Assembly (NCBI RefSeq): GCF_006345805.1
Contig: NC_043007.1
Span: 31,434,001 to 31,498,000 of the forward strand
Length of the DNA: 64,000 bases
Direction: 5' to 3'
Origin: Octopus sinensis
Lineage: Eukaryota
Shown here: positions 8,717 to 58,299 of the stretch, piece after piece
How positions within the stretch are numbered: position 1 is the stretch's first letter
Layout of the letters: every line of letters starts with the position of its first letter
Position numbers and translations under genes: made by a program
Notes under the pieces: model-generated
Told to the model about the DNA's origin: nothing
Databases searched by the model: none
The model's input: only the letters and a program-made list of their open reading frames with translations

Positions 8717-8751
8717 GTTAAACGTTTCGAGCAAAGCTCTTCTTCAGAAAC
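8717..8751 (-). ncRNA. Minimal type I hammerhead ribozyme motif in a ~200-bp Penelope-like non-autonomous element (8616-8812)
   Basis: The minus strand reads GTTT-CTGAAGA-A-GAGC-TTT-GCTC-GAAAC-GT-T-TAAC, with a canonical CUGANGA/GAAA core, 4-bp stem II and palindromic ACGT stem III. Confidence 0.65.
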
Positions 8752-24844: not shown

Positions 24845-27455
24845 CAAACCCATGCTACGTATGTGGAGGCCTACATTTCATGAAGGACTGTCCTTTCAAA
24901 ACGTGGAAATGTTACAGTTGGCAAAAAATAGGACACAAGAGCTCACATTGCAGAGCAAAGTTAGGAAGGTCGAACAGAAGAAAAAAATTCTAAAGTTTCC
25001 TCAACGGAAAGTAGAAACAACTCCAAAATGAGGAAATTTGTACATGTAAAAGAAAACAAAGTGAATACTAAATTACAACTGGATACAGGTAGTGACATCT
25101 CGATTATTGATCCCGACACATGGAAAATAGGAAACCTACGTTGAGAAAAACATCGCAAATTGCACGAGGCGTGACAGGTGAAAAACTACACTCGTAGGCA
25201 AAATGTGGAGCGATATGGCATTTCGTGGTAAAACATGTAGAGCAAAAGTTTTCGCGTTAAAAAATGCAACCAATCTGTTCGGCACGGACTGGATGGAGTT
25301 GTTTCACTTATTGGACCTCCCCATAAGTCTGTACTGTAAAAAAGTAAATGACTGTCCCACCAGTAAAATAGGTCATCGAATGAATTGAAGAAAAAAATTT
25401 AAAACTTGTTCCCTGAAGTACTGTCGGGTACATTAGGTCTCTGTACTAAGACTGAGACATGTTTTCAAATAAATGAAAACGTCGTACCTGTGTTCAAACC
25501 CAGTAGAAAGGTACCTTTTCCTGCAATAAAGCAGGTAGATGAAGAATTAAACAGATTAGAGAAAACTGAAATAATTCAAAAAGTGGATTATTCTAAATAG
25601 GTGGCACCAAATGTGTGTATTAAAAAAAAAAAGAATAACAAAATCAGGGTGTGTGCCGATTTTTCCACTGGTTAGGCAGTGATTTTTCTACTGGTTAAGG
25701 AGTGAATGTGTCTAAAAATGTACCACTATCCGCTACCATCTCCGGAGGATAGTTTTGCAAAATTAAACGGTAACAAGATATTTTCGAAACTGGATCTGTC
25801 TGATGCGAGCCTACAAATTAAAGCAGACGAGGAATGCTCGAAATTTCTAACAGTGAATACGCCCAAAGGACTTTATAAATATAACAGATTACCTTTCGGT
25901 CTAAAGGTCACACCTGCAATTTTTCAACAGGTTGTGGATGCGATGTTAGCAGACTGTAAATTCGCAATTCCATACCTAGATGATCTATTAATTAAAATTG
26001 AATCTGATGATCAGTATGTCGAGCATATAAAGAATGTTTTTGGAAAAATAAGAGTGAAGAGAAATGTGAATTTGTTTTGCCTAAAATTAAATATTTAGGA
26101 CAAATTATTGATAGAGATGGAAGACGACCTGACCCGTCGAGGGCAGACGCAATTAAAAATATGTTTCCTCCGGCTAATATAACGACCTTACAAGCTTTTC
26201 TGGGTCAAACGAATTATCAAAATTACATACTAAATATGTATAATTTGAGAATTCCACTAAATAATTTGTTATAAAAGGATGTGAAGTGGAATTAGTGAAA
26301 TTGTCAAAAGGCGTTTGACGATATAAAAAAAAAATACTAATATCGGATTTGCCGCTGGCTCATTTCGATCTTGCAGCGGATGTTGTTGTAGCTTCTGACG
26401 CTTCTGAATACGGCATAGGAGCAGTAATACTACACAAATATAAAGACAGTAATATGAAGGCGGTGGTTCATGCCTCACGTTCTCTGATAGCCGCAGAGAA
26501 AAACTATAGTCAAATAGAGAAATAAGCTCCTGCGATTATTTTTGCCGTGAAGAAATTTCACAGATTTTTGCACGGTAGAAGTTTTAGACTACAAACTGAT
26601 CACCGACCATTATTATCAATTTCTGGGTAGAAGGAAGGAATTACTACCCATGCTGCAAATAGATTGCAGTGCTGGGCTACAATATTGTTGAATTACGACT
26701 TTAAGATGGAGTACATTACTTCTAAGAAAATTGGCCATGCGGTCTGTTTATCTAGGCTAATTCCGAAGAATGCGGAATCGCTGAAAAATACGGTGATAGC
26801 CGCATCACAATCAGAAAAAGGAAATTAAAAACACTATGTGTAATGTCATTCAGAAGCTGTCAGTGAGTGTACAAGATATAAAAAGTAAATCAGCGAAGGA
26901 CAAATGCGTCATAAAATTGAAGAAAACATTGAAAAATAAACAAAAGAGAAACACAAATGCGAACCCTTTTTCACTCTGCGATGATGTATTGATGCTCGCA
27001 CAAAGAGTGGTAGTACCAACTGTACTATAGAAACGCATATTACATGAATTTCATAGTGGATACCCGGGGTGTCAAGAATGAAAGCCTTGGGGAGGAGTTA
27101 CGTGTTTTGGCCGACAATGGGCCGGAACATTGAAAATTTGGTGAGATCATGTAGAGGTTGTGCGCTAGCTGCCAAGACACCACTGGCAAAATAATAATCA
27201 TGGCCTGAGACTGATAGTCCATGGTCCAGCGTACATATAGAGTGCGCTGGACCAGTGAATGGCGTGTACTATTTGATCATTGTTGATAGTTTTACTAAGT
27301 GGCTGGAAGTATATAGGTGCAGTCAACCTCGAAGGCAACAATAAAGTTCATGCTCGAAATTTTTGCTTGATACGGTGTTCCGGACACCATAGTATTGGAC
27401 AATGGAACACAATTTACAGGATACGAGTTCAAAAAATTCTGCAAAACCAATCACA
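24845..27455 (+). pseudogene. pol: Ty3/Gypsy (Mag/K02A2.6-like) gag-pol pseudogene
   Basis: Domains appear in Gypsy order: CCHC knuckles (CYVCGGLHFMKDC, CYSWQKIGHKSSHC), protease LQLDTGSDISII, RT (FSKLDLSDA, RLPFGL, YLDDLLI), RNase H (VASDASEYGIGAV) and integrase (SPWSSVHIE, IIVDSFTKWLEV, DNGTQF). There are many stops and frameshifts. It is truncated in the integrase core and no LTRs were seen. Confidence 0.95.
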
Positions 27456-28210
27456 CAGGGGTGGGAAGCTGGCACCAAGAGGGGACCCCCACCCCCAAGA
27501 CATTCTACAACATTGGTTCCCTTCCGCTCCGATCACCTCAGAATTATAGTCTGCGAACTTGCCTGTCAACATCTTCGGTTTCGGCCGTACCCGGAAAGTC
27601 CCCTTCACCCCACCTTCTAGGCTATGATCCTGCAGCCGTCTTTAAATCGCTGACATGGACTTCAAAAGCCATCTACCCTCAGGATATACCCGGTGCTTGC
27701 AACCGGCTCCCCTTCAGTCAGCAAACTGCATTTTGTTTGCTTTTGGGATCAGATTGAAACCAAAAAGTTTAAGGTTCGCCTTTCGAGTAGGCATAAGATT
27801 CATATATTCCGCAGTGGCATACCTAGAGAGTGTGCCGCCTGCGGGAGCCCATGAGGCTGCCGATTCCATCTCCAGACCCTACCCCTACAAAAAAAAAATA
27901 ATAAATATGCCACGTTATTGTACAGTGGTCCAAAACCGCCGGCCCTCTCAAAAAGCATAGCCCAGGACTGACCGTTCCATTATTCTCCCACCTACACCAC
28001 TGATACTCCGAGCGTGTGCCCTTACATTTTGCTGTCCTGCGCCTTAATTTGCTTCTCTCTTCGACAGTCCCCACGCTTCTCTAGTCACTATTCCCTCCTT
28101 GTCGAAACAATTCTATGCTGCAGAAGTTGACCCCACTCCACTTCCGGTTTTTATTGGTCCCCTTGCTTCGGTGTAAGCTCTAGATGCTGGTAGCATTGAA
28201 GGTTAGTTGA
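27456..28210 (+). mobile_element. Possible decayed L1/Tx1-like ORF2 3' fragment abutting the Gypsy integrase
   Basis: There is an abrupt switch to C-rich sequence. Peptides such as PKTFYNI and KLTPLHFRF weakly resemble L1/Tx1 C-terminal regions. Confidence 0.3.
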
Positions 28211-29669: not shown

Positions 29670-30255
29670 TAAAGTAATATAAAGAATGGGATAAGAACGC
29701 AAAATATCCAGACAGATGATACAAAAAGAAAAGGGACGAGAAAAAAAAAGGATAGGTCATTCGGAGTTTTCTTTCGTCAGTCGAGTTCCAGATTATCTTT
29801 GCAATTTCGGCAGGTTATACTCGAGATTGCTCCAATTTGGCCAGCCCCAAGGAAAAACTAAGCTAAGAGCACTAGATTCCTTGGAAGAAAGCAGCGGATG
29901 CATACGAAAACAGGGACGGAAAAAATGGAGAAATGGTACACAAATACAAATGCAAATAACAGGACATTAACAACAGGTGTCTTTCGACTAAGGACAATTA
30001 AATTAAGCTGGCGTGTGTGAAAGTGAAGCATTACGGCTGGGACATAAGAGTGCAAGACGTCACTAACTGTGTAAACAGTATGAAGTACGAAAACAAACGA
30101 GTTAAATATGCAAACAACGAGAAAAAATGGAAAACAGGACAAGTAAAAGAGAACGACCCTTCATCTGTTGTCGGGTGTCTATCTACTCCTCTGAATGCTC
30201 GAAATTTGTTTTTGTACTTCGTACTGTTTACACAGTTAGTGACGTCCTGTACCCA
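29670..30255. mobile_element. Non-autonomous (TA)n-flanked repeat with a ~48-bp internal inverted repeat
   Basis: 30050-30098 is the imperfect reverse complement of 30205-30252. Part of it resembles 48530-48696 and 57675-57845. Confidence 0.6.
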
Positions 30256-30462
30256 TATATGCATATATATGTATATATATGTTAATATATATATATATAT
30301 ATTATATATATAATATAATATATATATATATATATATATAACAATTTAGGAGTGACCCTAACAGGTCATTCGTCCACCAGAAAGAGCAGCCATAACTCAC
30401 ACCGCCAAGTAGTAGTAATTCAGAAATTAGGTGAAATTTAAAAACATTTACCCTAATTCATC

Positions 30463-30558
30463 TTTAGACGTCAACGTTTCTGTGTCATTAATGATTAAAT
30501 TAGCTTAATTAAATTAAATTAAGGCCAATCTACCATAGGTTACACTTCATCAGTAAAA
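30463..30558 (-). ncRNA. Type I hammerhead ribozyme, inverted copy
   Basis: The minus strand reads TTTA-CTGATGA-A-GTGT..ACAC-A-GAAACG-TTGA-CGTC-TAAAG. Confidence 0.7.
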
Positions 30559-30823
30559 AACCTGGGAGAGACAATATACACGAGGCGTCTGTATCGATGC
30601 CTACGGAATATCTGTCTTAAAATTTTCAAGACTGACGTATTCGCGCCAAACTTATCAGCAGTAATATAAACTGCCGATTCAATCTCAGAATTCTGAGATT
30701 GAATCGGCATTTATATTTACTGCTGATAAGTTTGGCGCGAATACGTCAGTCTTGAAAATTTTAAGACAGATATTCCGTAGGCATCGATACAGACGCCTCG
30801 TGTATATTTGTCTCTCCCAGGTT

Positions 30824-30921
30824 TTTTACTGATGAAGTGTAACCTATGGTAGATTGGCTTAATTTAATTTAATTAAGCTAATTTAATCATTAATGACACA
30901 GAAACGTTGCAACGTCTAAAA
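30824..30921 (+). ncRNA. Type I hammerhead ribozyme, copy 1
   Basis: Stem I is TTTTA/TAAAA, CTGATGA starts at 30829, stem II is GTGT/ACAC with a 55-nt insert, and GAAAC starts at 30901. Stem III is the palindrome ACGTTGCAACGT, and the GUC cleavage triplet ends at 30916. Confidence 0.8.
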
Positions 30922-31293
30922 GATGAATTAGGGTAAATGTTTTTAAATTTTCACCTAATTTCTGAACTTACTACTACTTGGCGGTGTGAGTTATGGCTGC
31001 TCTTTCTGGTGGACGAATGACCTGTTAGGGTCACTCCTAAATTGTTATATTATATATTTTCGATGACATTTTCTCTTTTCCACCAGGCCGCTGGTAGCGA
31101 TAAATTTCTATTGAATTTTTTTGCTACCCTAAATTGACTAATTGATAATTTTCTGAATAATTCTGAGATTGAATCGGCAGTTTATATTTACTGCTGATAA
31201 GTTTGGCGCGAATACGTCAGTCTTGAAAATTTTAAGACAGATATCCGTAGGCATCGATACAGACGCCTCGTGTATATTTGTCTCTCCCAGGTT

Positions 31294-31391
31294 TTTTACT
31301 GATGAAGTGTAACCTATGGTAGATTGGCTTAATTTAATTTAATTAAGCTAATTTAATCATTAATGACACAGAAACGTTGCAACGTCTAAAA
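31294..31391 (+). ncRNA. Type I hammerhead ribozyme, copy 2
   Basis: Identical motif 470 bp downstream of copy 1, with predicted cleavage after 31386. Confidence 0.8.
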
Positions 31392-31642
31392 GATGAATTA
31401 GGGTAAATGTTTTTAAATTTTCACCTAATTTCTGAATTACTACTACTTGGCGGTGTGAGTTATGGCTGCTCTTATCTGGTTGACGAATGACCTGTTAGGG
31501 TCACTCCTAAATTGTTATATTTATATATTTAGTCGATGACTATTTTCTCTTTTCCATCAGGCCGCTGGTAGCGATACTTTTCTATTGAATTTTTTTGCTA
31601 CCCTAAATTGACTAATTGAATATATATATATATATATATATA

Positions 31643-44623: not shown

Positions 44624-44830
44624 ACGGGAAGCTTTATGAAAATAGACATAAGACGAAGGCAGGTTTACGGAAATAAACAAATGACGAAGGCAGGTGGAAT
44701 ACAAACAAACAATTGTATTAGTATGGCGCTCAGGAAATATAAATAAAACAAGTCTTTAACGTTTCGAGCCTACGCTCTTCAACAGAAAGATACACAGAGA
44801 AGAAACACAGAAAGAAAGAGAGAGAAAAAA
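44624..44830 (-). mobile_element. ~200-bp Penelope-like element with minimal hammerhead motif (CTGTTGA core, 44752-44790)
   Basis: The minus strand reads TCTTT-CTGTTGA-A-GAGC-GTAG-GCTC-GAAAC-GT-T-AAAGA. (TA)n flanks it. Confidence 0.75.
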
Positions 44831-47634: not shown

Positions 47635-48694
47635 TTGTCTATCTGTATGTTTGTCTCTCTCTCTACTCACTCATACACACACACACAGAGGCACGAACGT
47701 CATAGTTTCAACCATCCCCGTTTTATTTTTAAATAACTGTATCGTCCTGAGTTTATGCATGATGTAAATAATAATAATAATGATAATAACGACAACAACA
47801 ACAGCAACAATAGCAACAACAGCAATGGTAATATCGCAGCCCCTATATTGCTTGTACACGTGTGAAGCAAGGCACGGCTGATGACACATGAGCCGTACTT
47901 CTCAGTTTACCTTGAAATATGTAGGACACATTTTCTACGGCATCTGACTTGTATCTTCTCTGCTCCTAGCTTCAGTTTCAGCGAGAAAATTCTCCCCTAT
48001 CCCATTAACCACCAAATGAAACAGGGATCGTATTCTTTCGAGACTCACCACCCCTCACTCTGTGTCATCCCTAGCACCTGCTCTTCGTTTTTCTTGCTAT
48101 TAATAAGCTACTCTGAGGTAATTCTTCTTTGTATAACGGGTGTTGGTTTCGAATTTCCTGACACTTCCTCATTTAACGAAGTCGTTGATTGTGTCGCTTG
48201 CCGTTATTCATATTTTGTATTCAAGTATCAGCGGAATTCTGCTCTGGGGACGGGCTAATCGGGCTTCGTAGCCATAGAAATAGCCCCCTTCTGTAGTATT
48301 CGTAAAGGAAGGGAGACGGAATGTTCGATAACAATTTTTGAGAATTAATCTGTCACACATTCACGTACAAGCGCTCGCGCGTACAAACATGTGTGTGTAT
48401 GTGTGTGTGGATATATATATATATAATAATAGTGTAATAAATAAAATATATGCATACATGCATACATATATGTACGTACCTACATCTACATGTATATATA
48501 CATGCATATATAAATATATATACGTGAGTACAGGACACCACAAATAGACGTTGAACTCAACGAGAAACGAAAACGTAATAACAAACATGGAAACGGACCT
48601 TTTTTAACAACGAAAAAAACAGAGTACAAGACAAACTACACAAGGAAAATTCCCCTTCATCAGCTGTCCTTAGTTCAACTCCAGCGTGTTTCGA

Positions 48695-49034: not shown

Positions 49035-49112
<78 letters not shown>

Positions 49113-49153
49113 CTCCTACACGCATTTTTTCTCTCCTTGTTTCTTTTCTGTGT

Positions 49154-49193
49154 GTCTTTCTGTCGAAGAGCGTAGGCTCGAAACGTAAAAGAC
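49154..49193 (+). ncRNA. Minimal hammerhead motif (CTGTCGA core) in element 49110-49290; duplicate at ~51086-51125
   Basis: GTCTTT-CTGTCGA-A-GAGC-GTAG-GCTC-GAAAC-GT-A-AAAGAC, with a 6-bp stem I. Confidence 0.7.
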
Positions 49194-49962
49194 TTGTTCT
49201 ATTTATATTCCTGAGCGCCATACTAATACATTTGTTTGTTTGTACTCCACCTGCCTTCGTCTTTTGTTTATTTTCGTAAACCTTCCCGTTATATATATAT
49301 ATACATACATACATACATACATATATATATTACCGATACCTCATATTTCGTACCTTGAGTTCTACTACTGCAGGGAATTCTTGGGAAAGCATCCAATGCA
49401 GTGGTTTGAAAACTGAGCGACACCTGTCTTTCTTTAACCCCATTCCCAAAACTTAGGGATAACTTCCCCCCCTCCCGTCTTTACTAATCCTTTACGTTTT
49501 ATGTTTTACTTTTATGTTCCCTGTATAATTCCTCTTCCTCTTCTTACGGTATTGGACGAATTAAAAAAATACGTCTAAAACCATCTAATTTTATTAAACA
49601 TGGAAGTTTGTACCCTTTTCAATCCTCACAGACTTCTCGCTCCTTCGAGAACATTATCCTAACCTTTATTCACTTGGCCAATGCTCATTGATTAGTTATC
49701 CATTAAATCAAGTGTTATCCGATAATACCATGTCCCATATATATAGTCGCCATGATAGATCGGTAGCCACTACACACATTTTTTTCTCTCTCCTTTTTTT
49801 CTCTCTCCTTGTTTTTTTCTGTAGAAGAGCGTAGGATCGAAACGTAAAAGACTTTTTCAATTCCTGAGCGTTATACTATACATGTTTGTTTGTACAACCA
49901 CCTGTCTTCGTCGCTTGTTTTTTTTTTTTTTCGTGAACTCTCCCTATATATATATATATATA

Positions 49963-49999
<37 letters not shown>

Positions 50000-50512
50000 T
50001 ATCTTATTTTAAAACTGCTGAATCTTGATATAAGCTTCGTTACTTTGTCTCTCTCCACCAGGCAAAGAAAACGATATCTTATAGACATCGTTATATTCGT
50101 GACACGCGCGTTTATAGTAACGCGCTTACGATGGTTTTTTTTCTTCTTTTCTCCATGGCTGCCGCAGTGAAAATGTACCCACGCGTTTACTTATTTATAG
50201 ATAAACAGCGTTAAGTGATTTCTTCTTCTTCTTGGGTCAGAGGAGCAATGTCAGTAACCGGAGACGCACTCTTTGTGTCGTTTGCCTGTTCTTATATTTC
50301 TTATTTTTATTTAGTGTCATGTTGCACCATTGACATACACCAAGATCAACACCTGGTTTACTATGACTTATAGTAAAATGTTACTTAATGTTGCGATTCA
50401 AAAAGTCTATTTATATTATTATACCTGCAATGAGAAACATCTTAGCAATAATGACAATTCTTGCTAAGAAAGGCAACGGAGACAACTCCGAAATTTAAAC
50501 TGAATAAAGAAG

Positions 50513-50675
50513 TGCGGGTGTGGTTGTGTGGTGAGAGGTTTGCTTCCCATACACGTGGCGTCGGGTTCAGTCCCATTGTGTGGCACCATCGGCAAGTGTC
50601 TTCTACAATAGCACCGGGCTGAACTCACCTTGTGAGTGGATTTGGTAGACGGAAACTAAAAGAAGCCCGTCGTAT
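50513..50675 (+). mobile_element. SINE family A 5' half (duplicate at 52456-52618)
   Basis: Family A head through AAGAAGCCCGTCGTA. Confidence 0.8.
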
Positions 50676-51872
50676 AATAGAGCCAGAACACTAAGACAAT
50701 TTTTTGCCTGAACAAACGAAACATGTATTGATATTTCCCTTTAAAATCTTGGGATATTGCAAACCATATTTGTAATATCCTATGGATGGGAAATACAGCA
50801 ACAAAAACATGTGCTTTGTGGAAACGTACGTAGCAATGTATTAAAGGATTTATGAATTTCCAAACAAAAGTTCTTGCTATTACTGGAATCATCCTACGCC
50901 ACGGTGGCACCAGACCAATAACCTTCTCATAAAATTGCTGTGGAAGACGGGAATAAGCGGTGGCCGGAATAAGTAGCATAGCTTTTTATGAGCGCACTCA
51001 AAAACGTTTCACATATACGAACTGAAAGGATATATATATATTAGCTCCTACACGCATTTTTTCTCTCCTTGTTTCTTTTCTGTGTGTCTTTCTGTCGAAG
51101 AGCGTAGGCTCGAAACGTAAAAGACTTGTTCTATTTATATTCCTGAGCGCCATACTAATACATTTGTTTGTTTGTACTCCACCTGCCTTCGTCTTTTGTT
51201 TATTTTCGTAAACCTTCCCGTTATATATATATATACATACATACATACATACATATATATATTACCGATACCTCATATTTCGTACTTGAGTTCTACTACT
51301 GCAGGGAATTCTTGGGAAAGCATCCAATGCAGTGGTTTGAAAACTGAGCGACACCTGTCTTTCTTTAACCCCATTCCCAAAACTTAGGGATAACTTCCCC
51401 CCCTCCCGTCTTTACTAATCCTTTACGTTTTATGTTTTACTTTTATGTTCCCTGTATAATTCCTCTTCCTCTTCTTACGGTATTGGACGAATTAAAAAAA
51501 TACGTCTAAAACCATCTAATTTTATTAAACATGGAAGTTTGTACCCTTTTCAATCCTCACAGACTTCTCGCTCCTTCGAGAAACATTATCCTAACCTTTA
51601 TTCACTTGGCCAATGCTCATTGATTAGTTTATCCATTAAATCAAGTGTTATCCGATAATACCATGTCCCATATATATAGTCGCCATGATAGATCGGTAGC
51701 CACTACACACATTTTTTTCTCTCTCCTTTTTTTCTCTCCTTGTTTTTTTCTGTAGAAGAGCGTAGGATCGAAACGTAAAAGACTTTTTCAATTCCTGAGC
51801 GTTATACTAATACATGTTTGTTTGTACACCACCTGTCTTCGTCGCTTGTTTTTTTTTTTTTTCGTGAACTCT

Positions 51873-51945
<73 letters not shown>

Positions 51946-52987
51946 TCTTATTTTAAAACTGCTGAATCTTGATATAAGCTTCGTTACTTTGTCTCTCTCC
52001 ACCAGGCAAAGAAAACGATATCTTATAGACATCGTTATATTCGTGACACGCGCGTTTATAGTAACGCGCTTACGATGGTTTTTTTTTCTTTTCTCCATGG
52101 CTGCCGCAGTGAAAATGTACCCACGCGTTTACTTATTATAGATAAACAGCGTTAAGTGATTTCTTCTTCTTCTTGGGTCAGAGGAGCAATGTCAGTAACC
52201 GGAGACGCACTCTTTGTGTCGTTTGCCTGTTCTTATATTTCTTATTTTTATTTAGTGTCATGTTGCACCATTGACATACACCAAGATCAACACCTGGTTT
52301 ACTATGACTTATAGTAAAATGTTACTTAATGTTGCGATTCAAAAAGTCTATTTATATTATTATACCTGCAATGAGAAACATATCTTAGCAATAATGACAA
52401 TTCTTGCTAAGAAAGGCAACGGAGACAACTCCGAAATTTAAACTGAATAAAGAAGTGCGGGTGTGGTTGTGTGGTGAGAGGTTTGCTTCCCATACACGTG
52501 GCGTCGGGTTCAGTCCCATTGTGTGGCACCATCGGCAAGTGTCTTCTACAATAGCACCGGGCTGAACTCACCTTGTGAGTGGATTTGGTAGACGGAAACT
52601 AAAAGAAGCCCGTCGTATAATAGAGCCAGAACACTAAGACAATTTTTTGCCTGAACAAACGAAACATGTATTGATATTTCCCTTTAAAATCTTGGGATAT
52701 TGCAAACCATATTTGTAATATCCTATGGATGGGAAATACAGCAACAAAAACATGTGCTTTGTGGAAACGTACGTAGCAATGTATTAAAGGATTTATGAAT
52801 TTCCAAACAAAAGTTCTTGCTATTACTGGAATCATCCTACGCCACGGTGGCACCAGACCAATAACCTTCTCATAAAATTGCTGTGGAAGACGGGAATAAG
52901 CGGTGGCCGGAATAAGTAGCATAGCTTTTTATGAGCGCACTCAAAAACGTTTCACATATACGAACTGAAAGGATATATATATATATA

Positions 52988-56694: not shown

Positions 56695-58299
56695 AAAGAA
56701 AGAAAGAAAGAAAGAAAGAAGGAGCTTATATGTGTGTGGAATGAATTTAAAAAGATCTACGGATTGAGTTCAGCTTCACTCCTGGTATTGATTTTATCTT
56801 TTATCCCTCCACGGTCGATAAATAAATACCAGTCGTGTTCTGGTGTTAATTTAATCAACTTTACCCTTTCATAGGCGGCAGAATCTTGAGAGGATCAGAT
56901 ACATTGCCTCGCGGTATTTTGTTCCGAATCCCTGCGTCGTACGTTTAAATTCGGCCAAAATCAACTTTGCTTTCGTCGTTTCGAGGTCGATAAAAAAAAG
57001 TACATCCGTCCTCGTTTTTCACTGATTCATTCAACACTGATCTAGGACAACACGGGATACTCAGTTGTGAATCATGTTACGCTTATCATAGAATGATTTG
57101 TGATAAGCGGAACAGGTCAGCGACCGCTCAAAACAACCGCAAAAACGCGTCCCCCAAACCACCCCAAATGCTCTACTATACAGAATGCGCCGATTATCGC
57201 TTGGGTCCACATGGAACATACTGCAAGGTGGCATATATTTTACACGGATTTATGTAGTCGTATCCATGAACATGGGACCAATGAACAGAAAAGCCACGAA
57301 GGCTCCAGATCAGAACCGTTGTAGCAACATTGTAATCCCTTGGGTAAATCAATACAATGGACGCTAGAGTATTTGTTGACAGCAATCCATAGTATACATA
57401 GATCAGAATTGGGCCCCCTCGGTCATGTGGACCCTGTGCGCATGTCCAGTGTGCCCATGTCTTATGATGACACTGATCCTCATCCTAACAAACAACACAG
57501 GCGAGTGAAATTCTCTACAGGAAACGGTAAAGAGGACCAAGAATATACTTGGCGGTGGAAGCTTCGTTGTTGTGGTGTCGATGAATCTAGCCATTCGATT
57601 CATTTACAAAATGCATGCAGATGATTCATATATCACGGTTGTTATATATTTGTTTTATATTTGTATATATATTACCTTCGAAACGCGGAGTAGGGGACAA
57701 CTGATGAAGGGAATGTTCTTTTTGTTGCATGTCTCGTATCTCTTGTTTTTTTCGTTGTTCGAAAAAAAGAGTTCGTTTTCTATGTTTTTGTTTTTTATGT
57801 TTTCGTTCCTCATTGTGTCTACGTTTTTTTGATGTCTTATACCTCTATATACATGTATATATACATATAGATGTAGGTATGTACATATATGTATGTATAT
57901 ATGCATACAATTATATATTATTTATATTATTATTATATCTATATATATAATCAGTATTATGCAACCTGGCAGTCTTTTTACATGGGATTTCGCCTGTCTT
58001 TTGAACCAAGGCCCTGAAGAGACTCGTATACATAGATATGAATTATTTATAAATCAATGTATAGAACTCGAAGCAAATTGTTGGCTTTATTTGTTTTGTT
58101 TTTTTTAAATGGTTATATTTTATCGTATATTAATACTATATTCTTAGTATATTATCTTATATTGTAATGTAATAAATTGTCAGATTGTCAATTGTATTTC
58201 TCTATTGAATTTATTATTTGTAATATATATATACATATACATACATACATGCATGCATACATGGTGATGTATGTCTCCATGTGCTTCCCATTGTCAATG

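Follow-up and report, generated by a model that had tools for sequence, protein, structure and literature searches.

We propose that a locus in the 64-kb stretch of Octopus sinensis DNA that we analysed (the window; all positions are within it) carries a type I hammerhead ribozyme inside a likely non-autonomous Penelope-like element (PLE), that is, a 470-nt non-coding repeat of the kind called a non-LTR retrozyme. We think it probable that this hammerhead cleaves its own RNA after C30916, that it does so mainly as a dimer whose stems III are swapped, and that the insert in its stem II folds into a single unbranched hairpin directed away from the core. The case is built on the sequence of the window, on predicted folds, and on variants of the same repeat in sequencing runs.

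The motif in the first copy of the repeat (copy A) spans 30822-30923 on the forward strand. The 5' arm of stem I (30822-30828) pairs with 30917-30923 to give 7 bp, slightly more than the limits drawn in the first-pass annotation, and is followed by core positions C3 to A9 (CUGAUGA, 30829-30835) and by an extra A at 30836. Stem II (30837-30899) has 4 bp, of which G10.1-C11.1 is the first, then a 5x5 internal loop, and then a predicted unbranched hairpin of 19 bp. Another extra A (30900) precedes G12 to A15.1 (GAAA, 30901-30904). Stem III (30904-30915) is a perfect 12-nt palindrome, and the GUC before the predicted cleavage site ends at 30916. Both folding and variants that keep the pairs indicate that three helices surround the core, with the ends of the motif meeting in stem I. 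A9 and G12 are separated by 65 nt. The type I core (C3-U4-G5-A6-N7-G8-A9, G12-A13-A14, A15.1-U16.1, and H17) is present in all three copies in the window, and in copy A, 12 of 12 invariant core positions are intact and G10.1-C11.1 is retained.

A relaxed descriptor found three motifs in the 64-kb window, with C3 at 30829 (+), 31299 (+), and 30553 (-). In 40 block-shuffled windows, there were 0.25 relaxed cores per window and no strict ones. The fold of the motif region has a z-score of -2.77, and just 1 of 200 shuffles was equally good. Judging from its sequence, the motif is above chance and is a real hammerhead that is very likely functional, or was until recently; cleavage is a prediction. 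The first-pass annotation of this DNA had warned that standard models could miss the variant, and Rfam does miss it: there were no matches at the gathering score across the 64-kb window, and the 22 matches at E ≤ 10 included no hammerhead (most were miRNA-like matches to the fold-back that is described below). Yet the window's short hammerhead-like motifs went unreported by Rfam too, which leaves the insert unproven as the reason. A match to an Rfam model is a library criterion and not a biochemical trait that defines a hammerhead. A pattern scan of metagenomes for the motif gave no matches.

As the first-pass annotation had it, GUGU/ACAC (30837-30840/30896-30899) encloses a 55-nt insert (30841-30895). 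The 12-bp hairpin that it placed in this insert also holds up, with pair probabilities of 0.93-1.0, but in the predicted fold it belongs to a single helix of 19 bp (30846-30890), with one bulge and a 6-nt loop, that lies past the 5x5 internal loop. The annotation had drawn stem II as a branched junction that bears the 12-bp hairpin and a 3-bp ACC-TAT-GGT hairpin. Both of those helices can be drawn with standard pairs. However, the branched fold is 8.2 kcal/mol worse than the unbranched one (-15.2 versus -23.4 kcal/mol), and the small hairpin has a pair probability of 0.00, with or without constraints. The variants favour the unbranched helix as well: A30886G and T30887C, from a divergent contig (X13 contig 13), preserve pairs of the long helix, and in a loose end from run X17 that we aligned by eye, position 30849 is A, a change that would disrupt the small hairpin and leave the long helix paired. 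On these grounds we rejected the branched stem II, which we consider very improbable. Another variant, G30856A, converts a G-U pair to A-U and is common in all four runs that we examined, while the internal-loop positions 30841, 30894, and 30895 are free to vary. The long hairpin lies distal to the core, and the ribozyme probably tolerates it. That it has a regulatory role is speculation.

The palindrome of stem III is predicted to form a weak hairpin (-0.9 kcal/mol) and a strong duplex (-17.9 kcal/mol). For the monomer, pairing of the core with stem III gives a competing fold of equal stability, and the active fold has a probability of about 0.09. In the unconstrained minimum-energy fold of the tandem RNA (30821-31394), the palindromes form a 12-bp swapped duplex and one hammerhead is completed, so the model bears out the earlier suggestion that stem III could swap between tandem copies. 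A fully swapped dimer is predicted at -166.4 kcal/mol versus -152.8 kcal/mol for two monomers (the stretch was cut for this calculation so as to end at the second hammerhead).

Among the variants of the family, T30907A and A30912T are found in combination on X17 contig 18, where the palindrome is preserved. In X13 the two changes account for the whole depth at their sites, whereas neither is present on X17 contig 17. This double change may be one ancestral event, or it may have arisen by template switching on a DNA hairpin instead of by selection on the RNA. In stem I, an insertion behind 30823 that is common in the family changes a U-G pair to C-G. The extra A30900 is C in a divergent subfamily. 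Two changes that break pairs, T30838C and G30906A, have no partner among the variant rows listed (40 of 62). The only core variant among these rows is at position 7, which is free to vary, and none of the 12 invariant core positions is among the 39 variable positions (of 470) that they cover (P = 0.35). This agrees with a core more conserved than its flanks, the check that the first-pass annotation had named, but the difference is not significant.

The repeat unit that contains the motif, copy A (30689-31158, forward strand), is 470 nt long, has 34% GC, and is non-coding: the longest stop-free stretch across copies A and B is 66 codons. Copy B is in tandem with it (31159-31619, forward strand); its hammerhead is at 31292-31393, and its 3' end abuts an (AT)n microsatellite (31620-31642). 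On the left, a shorter inverted copy, C (30340-30692, reverse strand), has its hammerhead at about 30461-30560 with small indels, and it folds back at 30690/30691 into copy A with no spacer. Copy C is flanked by another (AT)n microsatellite (30255-30340), and we take these two microsatellites to represent the target. If circular, the monomer is predicted to be 65% self-paired. A partial tandem, an adjacent inverted and truncated copy, and unequal ends match the published layout of PLE insertions. As in PLEs, the hammerhead lies in a terminal repeat and the target is AT-rich or (TA)n; and, as in non-LTR retrozymes, there are at least two consecutive non-coding units (A and B), each with a type I hammerhead.

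The unit also has acceptor-like sites at 30820 (directly before stem I) and 31086, and a donor-like site at 30933. The site at 31086 has P = 0.0075 against shuffles, for a pattern that was chosen post hoc. In the Penelope element of D. virilis, the end of an intron is reported to abut helix I (PMC4209133). We rejected splicing of the octopus unit, except as a lead, as there is no splice joint in the mapped contigs and the family does not conserve a donor-like site at 30745.

Across the 360 nt shared by the three copies, comparison of A with B shows 1 substitution and 4 indels, of A with C 0 substitutions and 8 indels, and of B with C 1 substitution and 8 indels (after two end-artefact rows were removed from each comparison with C). 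An unrelated 1.9-kb duplication in the window likewise has 0 substitutions and 11 indels over 1661 nt (one end-artefact row removed), and two of copy A's indels are contradicted by the majority of the family. Indels without substitutions look like the signature of noise in a long-read consensus. This matters for copy C, whose stem III is 2 nt shorter. The first-pass annotation had noted that this shorter stem III still pairs (ACG-TTGA-CGT), which would make the inverted copy a case of natural covariation. Folding does not bear this out: the 10-mer forms no stable hairpin (0.0 kcal/mol), and its duplex is at -10.8 kcal/mol (versus -17.9 kcal/mol for the 12-mer). Moreover, the deletion, although present in the assembly, is one of the 8 indels in a comparison with no substitutions, and it is absent from the family indel rows listed (12 of 27). 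We therefore rejected it as natural variation, and given the noise signature, the short stem III of copy C is no evidence of covariation. At all of 14 hand-picked variable sites of high frequency, the three copies carry the same allele, which is evidence for a single template and a single insertion event.

The unit is present in 20 of the 24 sequencing runs listed (from 9 studies, with 3 organism labels), one of which may be the source sample. In the four runs that we examined, 1390, 711, 48, and 4 contigs mapped to it. Head-to-tail joins from 31154-31156 to 30689-30690 appear in 6 rows from three of these four runs, and the linker letters differ. Because the same join recurs with varied linkers, 470 nt is the period of the family as a whole. 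A second locus with an inverted piece, and with other breakpoints, is on X17 contig 17, and an X17 loose end stops matching at 31142 and continues into (AT)n. Contigs that overrun the ends of the unit number 23 in run X1 and 17 in run X2. Summed depths of around 10^5, against 5-50 for single contigs, hint at thousands of copies, although depth is no measure of copy number. The unit is covered in two runs presumed to be of RNA, as contigs that reveal neither transcription nor RNA ends.

From its sequence, the family is likely an abundant, non-autonomous, retrozyme-like repeat of PLE type. It is not classed as an autonomous PLE, since it has no ORF for a telomerase-like RT and GIY-YIG endonuclease, and it is not assignable to a clade. 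Among the 14 ORFs from the window that we compared to Pfam, there was no PLE domain; there was a single RVT_1 match, at 25706, which is Gypsy-like by eye. Three short motifs had no matches in one published PLE set, in which line breaks could hide matches. We rejected assignment to Naiad_Obim, Naiad_Ovul, or Hydra-1_Obim, as we saw no likeness by eye to the portions compared (for Hydra-1_Obim, the 3' end as a hammerhead row only).

In the mechanism that we propose, tandem loci would be transcribed, and neighbouring hammerheads would pair via their palindromes and excise a 470-nt monomer, which might then be circularised. An RT-endonuclease from an autonomous PLE, most like those of the (TA)n-targeting Hydra clade, would nick (AT)n. 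The RT would copy uncleaved or circular RNA nearly twice round and then fold back, which would give the inverted copy. No end or inversion point falls at the cleavage site, so copying at this locus ran through it, and we infer that the template was either uncleaved or re-ligated. By analogy with the PLE of the anole, the difference of about 95 nt between the outer ends may correspond to a "tail", or it may reflect priming at an internal AT run. According to PMC11167929, the anole element cleaves AT-rich DNA, and reverse transcription starts at two internal sites that define the tail. That element works from unprocessed RNA. Its hammerhead requires protein and can be dispensed with for insertion in vitro, where hammerhead mutants showed no reduction. 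PLE hammerheads are described as slow in vitro (Cervera and de la Pena 2014, PMC4209133), and 8 of 9 Xenopus dimers are reported not to have cleaved.

These findings leave some room for a hammerhead that is catalytically poor or dead and has been kept as a structural or protein-binding signal, with the element spreading via uncleaved RNA so that cleavage is irrelevant. In the monomer, the core-sequestering and active folds are equally stable, no insertion end is at the cleavage site, the anole mutants inserted no less in vitro (PMC11167929), and A opposite A at the base of stem II is absent from the 31 families in File S2 of Craig et al. 2021 (PMC8557442). However, the 12 invariant core positions are intact, the sole core change listed is at the free position 7, G10.1-C11.1 is kept, and stems I and III stay paired through their changes. 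A signal without cleavage seems to us quite improbable. Somewhat more plausible, though still unlikely, is that the 470-nt unit is no more than the pseudo-LTR at the 3' end of some longer, autonomous PLE, of which the locus is a heavily 5'-truncated insertion. Most PLE insertions are truncated at the 5' end and retain the terminal hammerhead, and the contigs that overrun the unit (23 in X1 and 17 in X2) may extend into such an element upstream of 30689. Yet the identical head-to-tail junction occurs in several variants and in three of the four runs, which random truncation would not give, and copy B covers the unit in one full turn and has no ORF.

A question apart from the identity of the ribozyme is whether copy C is an assembly artefact from a fold-back read. 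It folds back without a spacer, it has no substitutions relative to copy A and the most indels, and the family joints listed include no change of strand at 30690. Against this, copy C has a separate (AT)n run at its end and a flank that differs, and inverted 5' copies are typical of PLEs, with another at the X17 locus. We consider an artefact unlikely. On our preferred reading, of a non-autonomous element with an active hammerhead, the locus records a whole insertion event (two turns and a fold-back) that was copied through intact cleavage sites, and it bears on whether PLE hammerheads cleave before transposition and on whether the template is circular.

Since hammerheads in PLE repeats and in retrozymes are familiar, to meet such a system here is unsurprising. 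Metazoan PLE hammerheads normally have an extra base that follows A9, a G10.1-C11.1 pair, and a palindromic helix III, and they act as dimers (PMC4209133). Their consensus, CUGANGAH-G, shares the extra base after A9 with the octopus motif, and the accompanying descriptor permits additional bases N10 and N11. Of the 56 motifs aligned there, 1 has an additional A ahead of GAAA (Cervera and de la Pena 2014, PMC4209133). That descriptor has a helix II of 3-7 bp, a loop 2 of 3-10 nt, and a minimal stem III, and because of these limits the octopus motif falls outside it.

In 16 of the 31 PLE families in File S2 (PMC8557442), stem II is flanked on each side by a base that does not pair (14 U/U, 1 U/C, 1 C/A, and no A/A), and in 4 other families there is a G-C pair in this place. 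U-U mismatches at the base of stem II are also reported by Perreault et al. 2011 and in axolotl retrozymes. The first-pass annotation correctly noted the extra As at 30836 and 30900, but in calling this flanking atypical it overstated the case, given that flanking bases, like a palindromic stem III, are documented in PLE hammerheads. Loop II in File S2 has at most 10 nt except in two spike-moss elements, with 35 and 29 nt. Those PLE-X1 hammerheads share the long loop-II inserts of the octopus motif, but their inserts are shorter, they were flagged as non-canonical, and they are from plant elements that lack the endonuclease and target 28S rDNA. Going by sequence, what sets the octopus motif apart from the published PLE hammerheads that we compared is limited to its 55-nt hairpin and its A/A identity.

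The Hydra clade is among the closest in form. In 15 of its 25 families in PMC8557442, stem II has an unpaired base at either side (14 U/U and 1 U/C); most of its stems III are near-palindromic; and nearly all of its elements insert in (TA)n. Like the octopus motif, these hammerheads are type I, have the flanking unpaired bases, lie near the 3' end, and have a (TA)n target. They have a near-palindromic stem III of about 4 bp, one family has an inverted 5'-truncated copy, and one member is from octopus (PMC8557442). They differ in having a loop II of 3-10 nt, no A/A, and an ORF for RT-EN, whereas the octopus motif has 55 nt and a perfect 12-mer stem III. By eye, the octopus hammerhead of File S2 is different in sequence from our motif.

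Non-LTR retrozymes, as described by Cervera and de la Pena 2020 (PMC7229834) and Li et al. 2026 (bioRxiv 10.64898/2026.07.22.740005), share with the octopus family a short, low-GC, non-coding tandem unit with one type I hammerhead each and a monomer that is predicted to be largely self-paired, and their proposed origin is the pseudo-LTRs of PLEs. Those of invertebrates are 170-400 nt long, versus 470 nt here. The octopus unit also differs from retrozymes in that it lacks the canonical architecture of loop 1 and loop 2 and has a PLE-style inverted copy. Hammerhead tandem repeats of 450 bp are reported in D. willistoni (PMC4209133).

In the open literature, we did not find a description of the octopus family (subscription papers, Repbase, and Dfam were outside the search). 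A bolder reading would make it an undescribed and abundant retrozyme lineage, probably from octopuses, in which a conserved AU-rich hairpin of 19 bp replaces loop II as a control arm: by binding a PLE protein or a dsRNA enzyme, the arm would switch the RNA between the core-sequestering fold and the active dimer, and the motif would be one example of a wider long-stem-II class, to which an unrelated degenerate motif at 58014 (described below) would also point. Taken together, this is doubtful. If there is such a class of PLE hammerheads, it could overturn some reports of PLE families that lack hammerheads. Published descriptors limit loop II to at most 10 nt or the core spacer to at most 17 nt (35-50 nt for "half cores"), so ribozymes with a long stem II would be invisible to the searches behind statements about hammerheads in PLE clades. 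The motif also offers a simple construct for probing the effect of a long stem II. On the whole, the finding has a practical and modest value.

The window is AT-rich and filled with microsatellites, its repeats resemble those of octopus genomes, and it contains other hammerhead-like motifs. In a degenerate motif of Hydra type at 58003-58095 (+), which is unrelated in sequence, the spacer is 49 nt and is predicted to form a long hairpin, which suggests that long stem II arms recur in the octopus genome. A second repeat family has a minimal hammerhead-like motif at about 31765 (-), directly to the right of copy B, and at 44780 (-) and 48916, 49165, 49825, 51097, and 51756 (all +). In 7 of 10 fuzzy matches to this family (5 of them independent of the 1.9-kb duplication), A6, a position that is normally invariant, is replaced by U, while position 7 varies. 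Natural A6C variants of the hammerhead have been reported, and A6U was not found in the portions of the literature that we searched; this is possibly the more unusual core variant of the window. A third family has a minimal hammerhead-like motif with the normal A6, at 8743 (-) and 53113 (-), both partly decayed. Half-core motifs (CUGANGA without a fitting GAAA) occur in other repeats at 48663 (-), 57701 (+), and 29780 (-), and those at 48663 and 57701 loosely resemble, by eye, the 3' ends of octopus Naiad elements that have been published.

Several PLE-like elements cluster at the (AT)n microsatellite to the left of copy C. The left neighbour element, which ends in the shared (AT)n run, has a 54-nt inverted repeat (30044-30097/30205-30258) with 89% identity. 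The RVT_1 match mentioned above (E = 3e-17) is part of a decayed remnant that resembles an LTR retrotransposon (25706-26098 and 27371-27757); the second piece is integrase-like by eye and has no Pfam match. The 1.9-kb tandem duplication (49098-52984) has 98.7% identity, with small indels only in the part that we compared, and is either a very recent duplication or an assembly duplicate.
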